A DNA stretch of 64,000 nucleotides from a bacterium (GTDB taxonomy: Bacteria > UBA8248): contig CBDATS010000005.1 of assembly GCA_965200245.1 (NCBI GenBank), positions 288,001-352,000 on the forward strand, written 5' to 3'. The notes below the pieces were generated by a model. The model worked only from the letters and a program-made list of their open reading frames with translations. It was not told where the DNA came from and searched no databases. Of this stretch, positions 28,855-33,799 are shown piece by piece (position 1 is the stretch's first letter; each line of letters begins with the position of its first letter). The position numbers and the translations under genes were made by a program.

Positions 28855-29492
28855 CGTCCCCCGGAGCCTTGAGACGCCTGCTCGCTCACGTTTCCGGAAA
28901 CGATCTTTAGCGGATTTTCGATCCCTTGGCATCGGTCCATGATCGCTTGCCTGTTCAGGCTGGTCTTGACATCGCCTTTCCCGAGACAGCTGCGTGGCTG
29001 GAAGAGTACAGTTCGGCTTGCGGAACCCGGCCACCCCTGCTCCACGCCCTGAGCACCCCTCAGACCTGACGATTCAATGAAGATTGTGGTTTCGCCGCTC
29101 ATCACTCCGCTCTCGCTGGAACCAGAATTCCGCAAAACCCAACGATTCATCTGGAAATCGGTGGAGTCGACCACGTCTCCTGCGGGGATATCATGGCGGA
29201 ACACGTCCACAATGGGAGTTGCAGCGAATGATGTTCCCCGTGCCGTACCAACGCCGCGGCCGTGCCATTCCAGCCTGCGGCTCGCATTGGTAACGTCGCT
29301 CTACGCCAAGACACTAACTCGTCGAGTGTCTTCGCAACGAGACAACTGTTGGCGGCCCGGGTGGCGTGGGTTTGTCCGGCATCCGCCCCTGTGGTCTGAC
29401 AGAAGCAATTCTTCAAGCGCTGGCCCAAGAAGATTCGCAGAGAAACGCAGAGGATATCCTCGCCGGTATAATTCACGAAGCATCCGACAGTC

Positions 29493-29522
29493 TTGACAAC
29501 CCCAAGCCCGCTTCCCTATAAA
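29493..29522 (+). promoter_or_regulatory. Possible sigma70 promoter of tRNA-Asn
   Basis: TTGACA-18nt-TATAAA about 50 nt upstream of the tRNA. Confidence 0.45.
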
Positions 29523-29570
29523 CCCCTAATGTTTGGGAACTGGCGCCGATTCATGCAAAATGCTTCCCAC

Positions 29571-29645
29571 TCCGGCGTAGCTCAACGGCAGAGCAATCGG
29601 CTGTTAACCGATGGGTTGTAGGTTCGAATCCTACCGCCGGAGCCA
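29571..29645 (+). tRNA. tRNA-Asn(GTT)
   Basis: TCCGGCG/CGCCGGA + GCCA, anticodon arm ATCGG-CTGTTAA-CCGAT, GGTTCGAATCC. Confidence 0.97.
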
Positions 29646-29706
29646 ATTTCTGTGGGTTGTTCCACCCCCACGCCTCACCTGTCCTTGAGGCGAAACCAGA
29701 GCTCGG

Positions 29707-30015
29707 CTCTTTCACGAGGACATTCACGCTCCAGTCACGCAGAACTGCCATGCGGGCGAGTTGTTCATGAGGTTTCACTCCCGGCTGCATGTTGAACGAG
29801 TCGCTAAAGGGTTTGTACAGATCGATTCCTTCCACTTTGCACCTGTACAGATGACCATTCGCCGGACCCTGAAATACTTTTTCAGTTCTTTTGCGTTGCG
29901 GCTTTGCATGGAATCAGATCCCGCACGCGGAGCATCTTCCGTGCAAGGTTTTGCTTTCTTCGCCGTATTCAACAGGCCCGCAATGATTCTTGTACGTTAA
30001 TGCGGCTCTGATCAA
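29707..30015 (-). pseudogene. Degenerate HicB-family antitoxin
   Basis: SD GAGG + TTG; LTYKNHCGPVEYGEESKTLHG / (other frame) KMLRVRDLI / EKVF...C..EGIDLYKPFSDSFNM...HEQLA..A....SVNVLVKE follows the HicB pattern; frameshifts and a TGA at 29914-29916. Confidence 0.6.
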
Positions 30016-30049
30016 ATTTGTTGGTCCTCTTTCGCCCCAGCCGATCCCT

Positions 30050-31150
30050 TCAAGCGCCGTTCCTGGCTTTTTCGAGTGTGGAGACATTCATTGGGTGCGC
30101 ATTGCGACGGCGCTTGTCGACGCGGATATGCAGGCGCGCAGCATCAGCGAGACTCAGACCCGCTTCCCGTAATTCGCTCCGGCTGAAACCCTTGCCAGGG
30201 CGCCATGCACCACGGGTATCCCTTACGAGAGGGAAAAATACATTCTCCGCCAGAGAGGATTCCGGGAGCTCCTCCGGCAACTCTGGCAAAACCGACGCCG
30301 GCAAGGGTTTCTCAACCTCCTCTGTGATATCTTCCGCTTTCTCCGGCTCGCCCTCCCAAGAAATTTCAGGCTCAGATGCAGCAGTCTCTACGCCACTTTC
30401 GGCAATCGCCGAGGCAACTTCCCCGTCTTCGGTCGGCTGTTCGTCCTCCTCCGGCAAATTGTCCGCAACTGACGCCATTGCTGCCTGTTCACTCACGGAA
30501 ACCGTGTCATCGCCTGTTTCCGGATCACCTGCTTCCGGGATTTCCTGTCCGTGTGCGGATACCTCCGCGGTGCTTTCTGACTTGTATGGAACGCTCTCGT
30601 TTACCGGGACCGATTCCGACACCGCCAGAGATTCCTCGATCTGCTGTACAATTTCATCTATGACATCCGGTTCACTCTCTTGAGGAGTTTGCGGGTCGGG
30701 CGCAGCCGCCTCCTCGACGCTTTCAACTGTATCCATGGCAGATTCCGGACATTTTTGTGACGGATCCAGCATTTCCGACGACTCGTTTGATTCCGTCTCC
30801 ACCAACAACTCCAGATCAAGACCATATTCCTCGAAAGGCGCTGCCTCACGAGGAGGCTCGGGCGTAGCACGTGAGCCGTCCATAACTGACGCAGCCAACG
30901 GTTCAAGGGCGGGAGAATCGCCGCTTTCAACGGCGTCCGACCCGTTTGCGGAATCAGTTTGTGGTGGTTCACCGGAAGCGAGCAGTTCCAGATCCAAGTG
31001 AGAACCATAACTTTTGTTCTTCGTATCTTCCGTCGAATGCGGAACGCCCGGTTCGATGTCCGTGGGAGGTGGAATCTGAAATCCCTCTTCTGGCTCGGTT
31101 GGTGCGGGATCCTTGCGACGCGCGATACGACTCAAAAATTTTTTTCTCAT
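30050..31150 (-). CDS. Acidic low-complexity protein with C-terminal ribosomal eL13 (L13e)-like domain
   Basis: ~300 aa rich in E/P/S/A then WRPGKGFSRSELREAGLS..AARLHIRVDKRRRNAHPMNV..L. Confidence 0.75.
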   Translation of the reverse strand: MRKKFLSRIARRKDPAPTEPEEGFQIPPPTDIEPGVPHSTEDTKNKSYGSHLDLELLASGEPPQTDSANGSDAVESGDSPALEPLAASVMDGSRATPEPPREAAPFEEYGLDLELLVETESNESSEMLDPSQKCPESAMDTVESVEEAAAPDPQTPQESEPDVIDEIVQQIEESLAVSESVPVNESVPYKSESTAEVSAHGQEIPEAGDPETGDDTVSVSEQAAMASVADNLPEEDEQPTEDGEVASAIAESGVETAASEPEISWEGEPEKAEDITEEVEKPLPASVLPELPEELPESSLAENVFFPLVRDTRGAWRPGKGFSRSELREAGLSLADAARLHIRVDKRRRNAHPMNVSTLEKARNGA

Positions 31151-31366
31151 GCCAATGCCGCCCTCTTTGAGGTCAAAAAATCGTGATATTGAAAGATTAT
31201 CGTTCAGATATTACAGGGGCGGTAAACAGGATTGAAAAACCTACAAACTCAAACTAGCGATTCCAAAGGCTTGGTGTCAAGTTCGCAAGAACACGTGCAA
31301 CAAGTGTATGTTCAAAGACCGGAAATTCGGAAAACCCGGTGAAGCCGGGTGGATATCACCAGTTTC

Positions 31367-32128
31367 TCACCCTGCTTCAACCGCCAACTCCTCGGCAGCC
31401 TGGATGATGAGTTCGATGTCCGCATCCCGCGAGAGCCTATGGCCACCATCCTTGACGAGCGTGAGGTGCACATCGTCGCCTTTCAATACACTGGTGATTT
31501 TCAAGGAAATCTCCCAAGAAATAGCTTCATCAAGCATCCCGTGGATGAGGCGCACCGGGCATGTCAAATCAATCTCACCGTCCAGGAGCAGGTGCTTCGC
31601 ACCCTCATCAAGCAGTTTCTTGCTGATAGGATACGGTTCCTCCCACATGTTGGGCGCGTGCATGACGTATCCCCGCTCGTCGAGTTCACTTTGCATCTGT
31701 TCGGTGAGCCTGTGGTTGATGAAGCGCTCCGTAAAATCGGGCGCCGACGCCACGCCCACCAGAGCTTTCACGCGCGCGGGCCGGGCCAAGGCAGCGAGCA
31801 GCATCATCCACCCGCCCATGCTCGAACCTATGAGTACCTGGGGACCCTGGGCGACATTGTCCAGAATCGCCAGCGCGTCTTCCGCCCACTCGCCGATAGT
31901 TCCGTCTTCAAAATTCCCGGAAGATTCCCCGTGTCCACCGTAATCGAATCGAACGTAGGCACGCCCCACCTTTCGGCAATGGGCCTCGAGCGCGCGCGCC
32001 TTCGTCCCGCTCATGTCTGAACGAAAACCGCCCAGGAACATCAGGCCGGGAGATTTACCCTCCAGCCGGAAATAGGCGAGCGAAGACTTTTCCGGTCGAT
32101 GCAGAAAACTGGTGGGAGAATCCGTCAT
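31367..32128 (-). CDS. Alpha/beta hydrolase (ABHD10-like)
   Basis: GGFRSDMSGTKA, FDYGGHG, GSSMGGW, GHRLSR. Confidence 0.85.
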   Translation of the reverse strand: MTDSPTSFLHRPEKSSLAYFRLEGKSPGLMFLGGFRSDMSGTKARALEAHCRKVGRAYVRFDYGGHGESSGNFEDGTIGEWAEDALAILDNVAQGPQVLIGSSMGGWMMLLAALARPARVKALVGVASAPDFTERFINHRLTEQMQSELDERGYVMHAPNMWEEPYPISKKLLDEGAKHLLLDGEIDLTCPVRLIHGMLDEAISWEISLKITSVLKGDDVHLTLVKDGGHRLSRDADIELIIQAAEELAVEAG

Positions 32129-32135
32129 TCTCGTT

Positions 32136-32669
32136 TCAGGATAAATTTTCGAGATGATCGATCAAGCGGGCCGCTACGCCGCGAACCTCTGCTTCCGCTT
32201 CCTCGTCCACACAGCGACCATCCTCGTCAAAGACCTTGTGGACGCTCCCGATGGAGGCCTGACCGGGCAGAACCTCTCCGCCTACGTGTGCGAGAATGTG
32301 TCTTAGATGCGCGAGGGCGTTGTCCGCACTCGGCCCCATCGCCACACCGAGGATGGCGATGTTCTTTCCCTCGAAGGTGGAGGGATAGCCCAGGTTGTCA
32401 ATCGCCAGCTTGAGCGTGCTGCTGATGCTGCCATGATACTCAGGCGTCGCGATGAGGATGCCCGCCGCCCCTGTTACGAGTTCCTTGAGCATATCGGGAT
32501 CTTTCGACTCGCTCGGCTGCCCGGGCAGGGGCAGGTCCATATCGCCCAGATGGACCCGGGTGATTTCGAAATCCCCCTTCTTCAACTCATCAAGCGCCAG
32601 AGCGAGAGCCTTGTCGGTATTGTTCTGCAACCTGCGGCTACCGCCGAATACAAGAATATAGGGTGACAT
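32136..32669 (-). CDS. NADPH-dependent FMN reductase
   Basis: GGSRR, ATPEYHGS..LKLAID; downstream of LLM monooxygenase. Confidence 0.85.
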   Translation of the reverse strand: MSPYILVFGGSRRLQNNTDKALALALDELKKGDFEITRVHLGDMDLPLPGQPSESKDPDMLKELVTGAAGILIATPEYHGSISSTLKLAIDNLGYPSTFEGKNIAILGVAMGPSADNALAHLRHILAHVGGEVLPGQASIGSVHKVFDEDGRCVDEEAEAEVRGVAARLIDHLENLS

Positions 32670-32692
32670 TTCATTTCCTGTGCTTTTTTCGA

Positions 32693-33799
32693 TTACACCG
32701 CGACGTCGGCCAGTTCAGGCAGTACGACAGGTTCGGTGTCCTTGAGAAGCGGCAGAACCTCTCTGCCGAATATTTCCGCTTCTTCCTTGTGGGGCCATCC
32801 ATTCATGATAAAGTGTCGCACGCCCGCGTCGTAGTACTCGCGGATTACGCTGGCGACCATGTTCGGCGTGCCGACAAACATCGTCCCCGCGCCGCCGCGC
32901 ACCCTGTTGACGCCCATCCAGATCGTGTCTGTAAGCCAGAGGCTACCGCGCGAGCCCATCTCGTTGATGCGCATCTGGCCGGTAGACTCGGTGTTGTTCT
33001 TCATGTCGTTCCAGGTGCCCGTGTTCGAGATATCGCTCTTGTCAATCAGCGCCTCGGCGGCTCGCACCGCCTCTTTCCTCGTTTCACGTACACAGACCAG
33101 ATGGCGTATGCCGTAGCTCAGGGGTCGGTCACGCCCATATGCCTGTGATTCTCTCCTGCCTTCTTCGATATCCTTCCCGACAACTTCGGGTTCGGCAGCG
33201 TACATGACGTGCACGTCGCCGTGCTCCCACGCCACGCGCTTGCCGGGATCCGAGCTTCCCGCCAAGAAAATCGGGGGATTGGGCTTCGTGACCCGCTCAG
33301 GGAAGATGCCCGCGTTTTCAATCTCGAAGAATTTTCCCTTGTAGTCCAGCGGACCCTCCGCGTTCCACAGCTTTCGTACCACGTCCAGAAACTCGCCCGT
33401 GCGCGCGTAACGATCCTCGTGCGGCATGAAATCCCCATATCTTTTCTGATCCACGGGCGTGCTGCCCGTCACTACGTTCAGCGTACAGCGACCGCCGGTA
33501 ATGTAGTCAAGACTGTTCGCCTGCTGCGCCGCGTAGACCGGACCGGTGATCCCGGGCCGGAACGCCACCAGGAACTTGATCTTCTTCGTCCGGCTCGAAA
33601 TCGCGCCCGCGGTCGTCCAAGCGTCGATACAATGCGTGCCGCAAGGAACGAGGATGTTGGCGAAACCCGCCTTCTCGGCCGTTGATGTGACCTCTGTGAG
33701 ATAAGCGAGCGTGGCGGGCCGGTCAGGCGTCTTTTGGTTCACCTGCGACCCATCTCCCGCCCTGTGGGAGCAGAGCGCCCAGATGTATTCGGTAGACAT
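32693..33799 (-). CDS. Luciferase-like flavin monooxygenase (SsuD-like)
   Basis: AEKAGF, FLVAFRPG, LNVVTG, GSS, VGTP..VA. Confidence 0.85.
   Translation of the reverse strand: MSTEYIWALCSHRAGDGSQVNQKTPDRPATLAYLTEVTSTAEKAGFANILVPCGTHCIDAWTTAGAISSRTKKIKFLVAFRPGITGPVYAAQQANSLDYITGGRCTLNVVTGSTPVDQKRYGDFMPHEDRYARTGEFLDVVRKLWNAEGPLDYKGKFFEIENAGIFPERVTKPNPPIFLAGSSDPGKRVAWEHGDVHVMYAAEPEVVGKDIEEGRRESQAYGRDRPLSYGIRHLVCVRETRKEAVRAAEALIDKSDISNTGTWNDMKNNTESTGQMRINEMGSRGSLWLTDTIWMGVNRVRGGAGTMFVGTPNMVASVIREYYDAGVRHFIMNGWPHKEEAEIFGREVLPLLKDTEPVVLPELADVAV

Follow-up and report, generated by a model that had tools for sequence, protein, structure and literature searches.

An acidic protein of sponge-associated Nitrospinota with a C-terminal eL13-like domain and its possible kinship to DruH-position proteins of Druantia III-B-like systems

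The gene and its product

Ribosomal protein eL13 binds rRNA, and, to our knowledge and under the established nomenclature, bacterial ribosomes have no eL13. The subject of this study is a bacterial gene whose product, a long acidic protein, ends in a small basic domain resembling the eL13 core. The gene lies in a stretch of 64,000 nucleotides (contig CBDATS010000005.1 of assembly GCA_965200245.1, positions 288,001 to 352,000 of the forward strand), which is called the window in what follows and is numbered from its first nucleotide. It occupies positions 30050–31150 on the reverse strand, with the stop codon at 30050–30052, and according to the list of open reading frames (ORFs) and its composition encodes 366 amino acids (aa) from an ATG start, with a pI of 4.17. 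A homologue search at E ≤ 0.001 found 113 proteins, 26 of which form the family alignment (A1) referred to below; the homologues have total lengths of 218–541 aa and arms of variable length.

Three parts can be distinguished in the protein, all on the reverse strand. The N-terminus (aa 1–15, MRKKFLSRIARRKDP, positions 31106–31150) is basic, with seven K/R residues, and is conserved as M(N)IKKNFLSRIARRK across the aligned members of A1, which confirms the ATG start; a low-confidence AlphaFold2 prediction places a short helix at aa 6–9. It is followed by an acidic, proline-rich arm (aa 16–300, positions 30251–31105) with 75 D/E against 8 K/R, 34 prolines and a pI of 4.05. The arm is predicted to be disordered: in the AlphaFold2 model made with the family alignment, the per-residue confidence score (pLDDT) is below 50 for nearly all of residues 14–306. 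Three short stretches of the arm are conserved in A1, namely a proline motif at aa 24–38 (FQIPPPTDIEPGVPH, positions 31037–31081) in which P27 and P29 are nearly invariant, a first LDLELL motif at aa 52–57 (positions 30980–30997) with nearly invariant E55 and L56, and a YGLDLELL motif at aa 109–116 (positions 30803–30826) with invariant Y109 and G110, in which the second LDLELL starts at aa 111. The last 62 aa, FFPLVRDTRGAWRPGKGFSRSELREAGLSLADAARLHIRVDKRRRNAHPMNVSTLEKARNGA, make up a basic domain (aa 305–366, positions 30053–30238, pI 11.8), delimited by profile, PDB and AlphaFold2 matches; in the full-length model, the 10-residue pLDDT block means reach 79–91 across residues 321–366, and the predicted fold is a β-hairpin followed by three helices. 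A first-pass annotation made from the sequence had described the acidic low-complexity arm, the repeated LDLELL and the basic N-terminus, and all three are borne out.

The C-terminal domain and the eL13 core

The same annotation had read an eL13 signature in the last ~60 aa, and profile, sequence and fold comparisons agree with it. The Pfam profile PF01294 (Ribosomal_L13e) matches significantly, with an E-value of 2.3e-7 and 31.3 bits where the gathering cut-off is 24.9, and the match covers aa 316–352 on positions 62–98 of the 180-position profile (37 positions). A better score is obtained with the NCBIfam profile of archaeal L13e, NF008914 (E = 5.4e-14, 51.6 bits; aa 315–361 on positions 27–73 of 83); it does not reach the equivalog cut-off of 96, the window protein having no more than the core. 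When PDB chains were searched with phmmer, 69 distinct sequences were found at E ≤ 10, and the 60 best, those listed, are all eL13/L13e; the best E-value is 5e-7, and the best single match among the matches listed is a eukaryotic (microsporidian) eL13. In a Foldseek comparison of the domain model with the PDB, the best 50 rows are all eL13 chains of ribosome entries (best E = 4.1e-4, probability 0.99–1.00, TM-score on the query 0.51–0.66, for a domain-only model of moderate confidence with a pLDDT of 64.8). Over 57 residues, the window domain is 58% identical to a 147-aa archaeal protein from a Hydrothermarchaeota record; past its eL13 core, this homologue (L038:5956-6399) has what look by eye like helix–hairpin–helix-like repeats, GVGPKKAEQLARAGI....

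Taken together, these matches go far beyond chance and identify the C-terminal domain, as judged from sequence and predicted fold, as a genuine eL13-core homologue. The window protein is probably not a ribosomal protein.

The wider domain family and its large members

Where the domain occurs elsewhere was assessed by searching 1.84 billion representative proteins with the 62-aa domain profile, which gave 825 matches at E ≤ 0.001, 70 of them at E ≤ 1e-10. The best matches outside the window family are proteins of 590–970 aa that carry the domain at their extreme C-terminus (93 bits for P0117, 76 for P0118), followed by small archaeal eL13-type proteins of 55–160 aa that score at most about 66 bits. 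Identities follow the same order, with 70% to the domain of P0117 against 58–60% to the small archaeal-type proteins, and the layout of eukaryotic eL13 is found in none of the best 150 representatives. Of the 300 proteins collected, 292 carried the domain; a script sorted 116 of them as acidic-type and 109 as small, with 55 large and 12 other. Seven candidates (P0119, P0130, P0191, P0218, P0222, P0237 and P0250) were rejected as domain carriers, their 10–19 matched stretches on profile positions 16–35 being a repeat artefact; the two that were scanned, P0119 and P0130, are TrbI-like proteins with decapeptide/pentapeptide repeats and also give weak Pfam L13e matches.

These results bear on the proposal, made in the first-pass annotation, of a horizontally acquired eL13 domain. 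The presence of a genuine eL13-core homologue in a bacterial protein stands. The gene does not, however, look like an archaeal or eukaryotic ribosomal protein acquired in a single transfer; outside its own family, its domain matches the tails of large bacterial proteins best (93 bits against at most about 66).

The large proteins are poorly described by existing models. Pfam L13e scores above its cut-off in five of the eight tested, and no other Pfam, NCBIfam or PADLOC match was obtained for them. In PHROGs, P0169 is matched only through an immunoglobulin (Ig)-like stretch; no match to the large family was found among plasmid records, and viral contigs gave one weak locus, with 30% identity over 98 aa. 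Among 20 large-family clusters, one name was found, 'ribosomal protein L13e' in a metagenome-assembled genome of Rhodobacteraceae/Paracoccaceae. When the acidic and large families are compared by hhalign, only the C-terminal domain aligns, over 86 columns with a probability of 99.6% and an E-value of 6.3e-24.

The gene that follows the large gene gives a clue to its role. A metagenome scan yielded nine large-family loci, seven of them with a downstream flank, and in all seven a gene for ~1400 aa comes directly after the large gene, its start overlapping the large gene's end. The same pair is present in two sister genomes of the window genus, G007 and G009 (with the two genes ~200 nt apart in G009), so that it is found at nine of nine flanked loci. 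The nine downstream proteins are helicases, mutually 61–97% identical over their full length. They match the PADLOC DruE models at E-values of 1e-147 to 1e-158 (three metagenome examples and that of G007); the three scanned against Pfam have DEAD, Helicase_C and MrfA Zn-binding (MZB) domains and no PLD hit, and PDB matches are to two large helicases and YprA. Genes near the metagenome pairs include restriction-modification and SIR2-like genes. A 2026 preprint defines Druantia III-B as DruH together with a compact DruE lacking PLDs, and describes DruH as lacking annotated domains. For E. coli DruH, a globular N-terminal domain, six Ig-like domains and a C-terminal domain are described, with single-stranded DNA (ssDNA) bound at the interface between Ig5 and the C-terminal domain (preprint 10.64898/2026.05.12.722862). 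The large family hence holds the DruH position of a Druantia III-B-like system, and is DruH-like by position only.

A side observation concerns the DruH-position protein of G009 (L059:7742-10132), which has the conserved body without the eL13-like tail and ends instead in an unrelated acidic C-terminus. Since body and tail can thus be separated, the eL13-like tail would be a swappable module.

Relationships among the domains were further examined in a tree of 206 rows and 63 columns. In it, the acidic family forms one clade (SH-aLRT, the approximate likelihood-ratio branch support, of 96) that falls among large-family domains, and the other half of the tree contains most small proteins. The same split, joining the acidic with the large family, is recovered with an SH-aLRT of 87 in a 70-row subsample, which leaves out 136 of the 206 rows (random sampling), the long row P0235 and nine acidic-family fragments. 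The acidic-plus-large group was named post hoc, once the tree was known. Both trees are free of eukaryotic eL13 rows, a wider homologue search, crowded by the window's own family, having returned none.

Distribution and constraint within the genus

The acidic family is confined to a narrow group of genomes. Detected by Pfam L13e, it is present in 17 of the 22 sister genomes of the genus, and in none of 18 more distant relatives, of the 28 other genomes among the 51 of the phylum, or of 14 control genomes. Homologues bear Nitrospinota or Nitrospinae names at NCBI, apart from one Rhodospirillaceae. At the best match, 15 of the 17 carrier genomes have open frames of 272–550 aa that include the full domain; for the other two, either the contig ends or the stretch examined has no start. 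Of the 22 sister genomes, 17 carry the acidic gene and two the large form, whereas three lack either and none combines the two; as these genomes are kin, such counts are not independent.

Second or third copies occur in five genomes of the genus and belong to a second sequence type (IRFDKRRRNTH). They sit elsewhere in the genome: one (L029) has IS1595, DDE_3 and IS110 transposase genes beside it, and another (L037, in G010) lies directly after a tyrosine integrase gene. Intact paralogues are found in G003, G005, G013 and G020. G010 has three copies, two of which occupy open frames of only 115 and 149 aa; the extra copies of this genome are split (L033:5067-6183 and L037:4916-6189), with arm and tail domain in separate ORFs or frames.

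Constraint differs along the protein. In 45 pairs drawn from ten syntenic orthologues, the median ratio of non-synonymous to synonymous substitution rates (dN/dS) is 0.195 in the domain against 0.476 in the rest of the protein, where the arm can be aligned less reliably; the comparison indicates that the C-terminal domain is under purifying selection. The arm has a signature of its own, the motif E-E/G-Y-G-L/D-D/E-L/F-E-x-L, of which 222 instances were counted in 112 of the 113 homologues, one to four in each, against 0.001 per protein in shuffled sequences. None of 44 large-family proteins carries this motif, which is therefore special to the acidic family. The gene is thus conserved and constrained within one sponge-associated Nitrospinota genus.

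The tRNA-Asn hotspot

The window gene lies between two conserved borders. One is a tRNA-Asn (GTT) gene found by ARAGORN at 29571–29645 on the forward strand, convergent with the ORF; the other is an alpha/beta hydrolase gene at 31367–32128 on the reverse strand, identified by Pfam, orthologues of which (67–85% identical) adjoin the site in sister genomes. In G007, G001, G009 and G019 and in three syntenic loci, the border is likewise formed by this tRNA. What lies in between varies. In G019, hydrolase and tRNA are separated by only 180 nt; G009 has a gene for a 548-aa HNH-domain protein, and G001 a HicB-family gene with one further gene. In G007, the order is a molybdopterin-oxidoreductase remnant, tRNA-Asn, the DruH-position gene, the DruE-like gene, further ORFs, the hydrolase, an FMN reductase and a monooxygenase. 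The interval 29646–31366 and its equivalents (L058, L061, L062 and L063) therefore exist in at least five states in one genus, namely empty, or occupied by the acidic eL13-like gene, the Druantia III-B-like pair, the HNH-domain gene or the HicB-family gene, and the window gene occupies a variable hotspot laden with defence and toxin–antitoxin genes. Repeats typical of tRNA attachment sites were searched for around the gene and none was found, only short two-copy repeats inside the coding arm.

Two further observations concern this site. Contigs of several sequencing runs break or branch inside the tRNA-Asn gene (window positions 29586–29619), and X1, X4 and X6 share one loose end; this would be expected if alternative sequences adjoin the tRNA in the community. 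In one sister genome (L031:4389-5218), two small genes lie between the hydrolase and acidic genes, one of them belonging to the antitoxin-like UPF0175 family.

Beyond the site, the neighbouring genes are bacterial, as the first-pass annotation had stated: Pfam identifies an alpha/beta hydrolase, an FMN reductase, a luciferase-like monooxygenase and a molybdopterin oxidoreductase. The order PEGA protein, luciferase-like monooxygenase, FMN reductase, alpha/beta hydrolase and acidic gene is kept in nine of 13 related loci; at syntenic loci, the neighbours are 80–95% identical and the acidic protein only 38–52%. The genome has 3.68 Mb in 15 contigs, with 95.8% completeness and 8.1% contamination. 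A chimeric contig, which would have undermined the first-pass annotation, can be dismissed: a DNA contig of a second study covers positions 29590–32700 with zero differences, and together with the conserved gene order this shows that the contig is not chimeric at the window gene. Sponge-metagenome runs also contain the stretch, in one of them (X4) as pieces that differ by at most one letter.

Contigs of two RNA-library runs cover positions 30209–31112 without difference. They provide weak evidence that the window gene is transcribed, since RNA libraries can contain DNA and both runs come from the possible source study of the assembly. Stretches that these libraries leave uncovered, for example 31124–31465, carry no weight either way. 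A promoter and terminator scan of 29400–31500 gave no promoter-like site and one terminator-like site, inside the ORF, which is fewer than in shuffled sequences.

A helicase that might serve the acidic protein was also looked for. The only YprA-like helicase found lies in G000, ~240 kb away, in a DISARM/ARMADA-like cluster. This candidate was rejected as a partner: at E ≤ 1e-20 and over 23 genomes, it is found only in G000, apart from a fragment in G020 and less closely related helicases in G009. The cluster itself (G000:C5:549000-566000, L060) has its YprA/DruE-like helicase as three consecutive ORFs of 439, 589 and 689 aa, and also encodes a DrmMI-like methylase and a 927-aa SNF2 helicase that resembles DpdE/DrmD (E = 1.7e-165).

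Interpretation of the window protein

The reading favoured here, with a probability of roughly 0.45, is that the window protein would be a stand-alone nucleic-acid-binding adaptor or decoy, lacking helicase and Ig-like body, that is related to a defence subunit. A conflict-related nucleic-acid binder is considered likelier than a ribosomal protein because the best-scoring relatives outside the family are the tails of Druantia-type helicase partners. The protein would be cytoplasmic and would consist of the short basic N-terminal helix, the acidic motif-bearing arm and the basic eL13-like domain. Binding of the domain to nucleic acid, either ssDNA or RNA, is suggested by the rRNA binding of eL13, by the basic DKRRRN motif and by the ssDNA binding reported for canonical DruH. 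The arm might recruit partner proteins through its motifs, as the acidic tail of the single-stranded-DNA-binding protein SSB does, or alternatively fold back on the basic domain and so gate binding. Such a protein may act in conflicts with phages or mobile elements.

Several results weigh against this reading. The link to Druantia is indirect: no PADLOC DruH model matches the large family, which is why it is called DruH by position alone, no PADLOC family matches the window protein at E ≤ 0.01, and the N-termini of the window protein and the G007 DruH-position protein show no significant homology (E = 0.52). Comparing the domain with archaeal eL13 by phylogeny, as the first-pass annotation had proposed, gives a divided answer. 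The free trees group the acidic family with the large bacterial proteins, yet a tree in which it is forced together with the small archaeal-type proteins is not rejected by the approximately unbiased (AU) test (p = 0.30); with few columns and a non-rejecting AU test, the closest kinship to the large family rests mainly on scores and identities. No partner of the acidic protein was found and most carriers are without a DruE-like helicase: the G007 DruE-like protein compared with the whole 64-kb window by tblastn has a best E-value of 0.6, with no helicase remnant, and no large-family gene was found in any of the 17 sister genomes that carry the acidic one. Relative to the tRNA, the window gene runs in the opposite direction to the G007 pair, which makes simple in-place descent by deletion unlikely. 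Finally, the main copy looks vertically inherited; its syntenic position in at least nine further loci of the genus is more like that of a domesticated core gene than of mobile cargo.

Other readings have to be weighed on the same evidence. The gene might be an anti-defence decoy of mobile elements that mimics the C-terminal module of DruH-position proteins, or nucleic acid by means of its acidic arm, and blocks a Druantia-like or other DNA-targeting defence. The domain common to the window protein and the defence subunit speaks for it, as do the extreme acidity of the arm, reminiscent of DNA-mimic anti-restriction proteins, the paralogues adjoining an integrase and transposases, and the fact that acidic and large forms never occur together in the 22 sister genomes. 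This is nevertheless unlikely: the window domain has no match in 50,697 phage records, no PHROGs family matches the window protein, a paralogue or the G007 protein, the main copy is syntenic in at least nine further loci of the genus among housekeeping-type genes, carriers lack the system to be inhibited, and known DNA mimics are folded where the window arm is predicted to be disordered. Rather improbable is a tether, in which the eL13-like domain would bind rRNA and anchor the acidic arm to ribosomes or RNA, the arm perhaps acting as the acidic stalk arms do in the ribosomes of archaea and eukaryotes. These stalk arms recruit factors through acidic-hydrophobic tail motifs, and a likeness may be seen in that the arm of the acidic family is long, acidic and flexible, with one to four acidic-hydrophobic motifs per protein; the domain is homologous to the rRNA-binding eL13 core and, over 57 aa, shares up to 58% identity with an archaeal eL13. 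Against this, there is no eL13 in bacterial ribosomes, and, unlike a translation component, the gene is absent from five of the 22 genomes of the genus and from all 28 other genomes of the phylum; it sits in a variable hotspot, has paralogues beside transposases and an integrase, and has defence-system partners as its best-scoring relatives outside the family. A ribosome tether is a possibility suggested by the homology and otherwise unsupported.

Two remaining readings are less credible still. The gene could be a functionless leftover of a DruH-position gene that has lost its centre and its helicase, a view to which the full pair in the same hotspot of G007, the two G010 copies (of three) in short frames of 115 and 149 aa, and the fast-evolving arm (38–52% identity against 80–95% for the neighbours) lend some colour. 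Decay is very unlikely given that open frames of 272–550 aa reach the domain in 15 of 17 carriers, that the domain has a dN/dS of 0.195 and the motif persists in 112 of 113 homologues, that intact paralogues are kept in G003, G005, G013 and G020, and that RNA-library contigs cover the gene. The least plausible view is that of a eukaryote-like protein exported by a sponge symbiont, whose domain or motifs would engage ribosome-assembly or translation factors of the host. The stretch does occur in sponge-metagenome runs and in the second study, the best single PDB sequence match is a microsporidian eL13, and eukaryotic-like proteins of sponge symbionts have been described. The N-terminus, however, has no hydrophobic signal sequence, the archaeal-type profile scores higher (51.6 bits) than the mostly eukaryotic Pfam model (31.3 bits), the eukaryotic eL13 layout is missing from the best 150 representatives, and the best-scoring relatives are bacterial defence partners.

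Returning to the preferred reading of a stand-alone adaptor or decoy, a wider scenario can be drawn, though it must be called doubtful. Bacteria would have adopted the eL13 RNA-binding core as the nucleic-acid-sensing tail of a DruH-position subunit of Druantia III-B type, and sponge-associated Nitrospinota would hold a stripped-down independent derivative, made of the tail and the YGLDLELL arm without Ig body or helicase, which might serve as a sensor or adaptor that brings cell factors to foreign nucleic acid, or else as a defence-tuning decoy.

Novelty and significance

Public records already label acidic and large bacterial proteins 'ribosomal protein L13e' by automatic annotation. In the literature searched, supplementary files excepted, nothing was found on a bacterial eL13-like domain, and the passages searched in Druantia/YprA papers contain neither 'L13' nor 'ribosomal'. 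By these searches, the link of the eL13-like domain to the DruH-position family is new, and so is the helicase-less acidic offshoot with its own motif.

A recognisable eL13-like domain on the DruH-position family offers a concrete hypothesis for how a DruH subunit meets nucleic acid. If true, the core of a ribosomal protein has been re-used outside the ribosome and in another domain of life. The name 'ribosomal protein L13e' is misleading for a 366-aa acidic disordered protein or for an 814-aa defence partner. The genus-restricted acidic family also provides a workable case of defence-system parts that may have been cut down and re-deployed in sponge symbionts.

Comparison with known systems

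With eL13, the window protein shares the core motif of ~50 residues, G-K/R-G-F-S..EL..AGL...A..L.I.VD.RR...H..N, and a predicted β-hairpin with helices. The two differ in that eL13 is a small basic full-length protein, whereas the window protein is bacterial, has 366 aa and a pI of 4.17, and is ~80% disordered by prediction; moreover, a ribosomal component is expected to be universal in its lineage, while the window gene is patchy in one genus and placed in a variable hotspot.

DNA mimics of the Ocr/ArdA type have a folded acidic surface and a phage or plasmid origin, in contrast to the predicted disordered arm and the lack of a phage match of the window protein. SSB is closer in architecture, although in architecture only. 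In SSB, the acidic-hydrophobic motif serves to recruit partners and also folds back onto the domain that binds nucleic acid, and both proteins would combine a small nucleic-acid-binding domain, putative in the window protein, with a long disordered linker bearing an acidic-hydrophobic motif. The window protein differs from SSB in having no OB fold, a reversed order of parts and an internal, repeated motif, and there is no homology between the two.

Canonical DruH is described as having an Ig-like multi-domain body, whereas the window protein is predicted to be disordered between its N-terminus and its C-terminal domain; a DruE helicase adjoins DruH, and the 64-kb window has no DruE-like gene. 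The large family, finally, differs from the window protein by a central region of ~500 aa, including the PHROG-matched Ig-like stretch, for which the window protein has no counterpart. The two have in common the C-terminal eL13-like domain (hhalign probability 99.6%), a basic amphipathic helix at the N-terminus that leads into an acidic, proline-rich disordered stretch, in a likeness that is qualitative only, and the genomic hotspot, as in G007.

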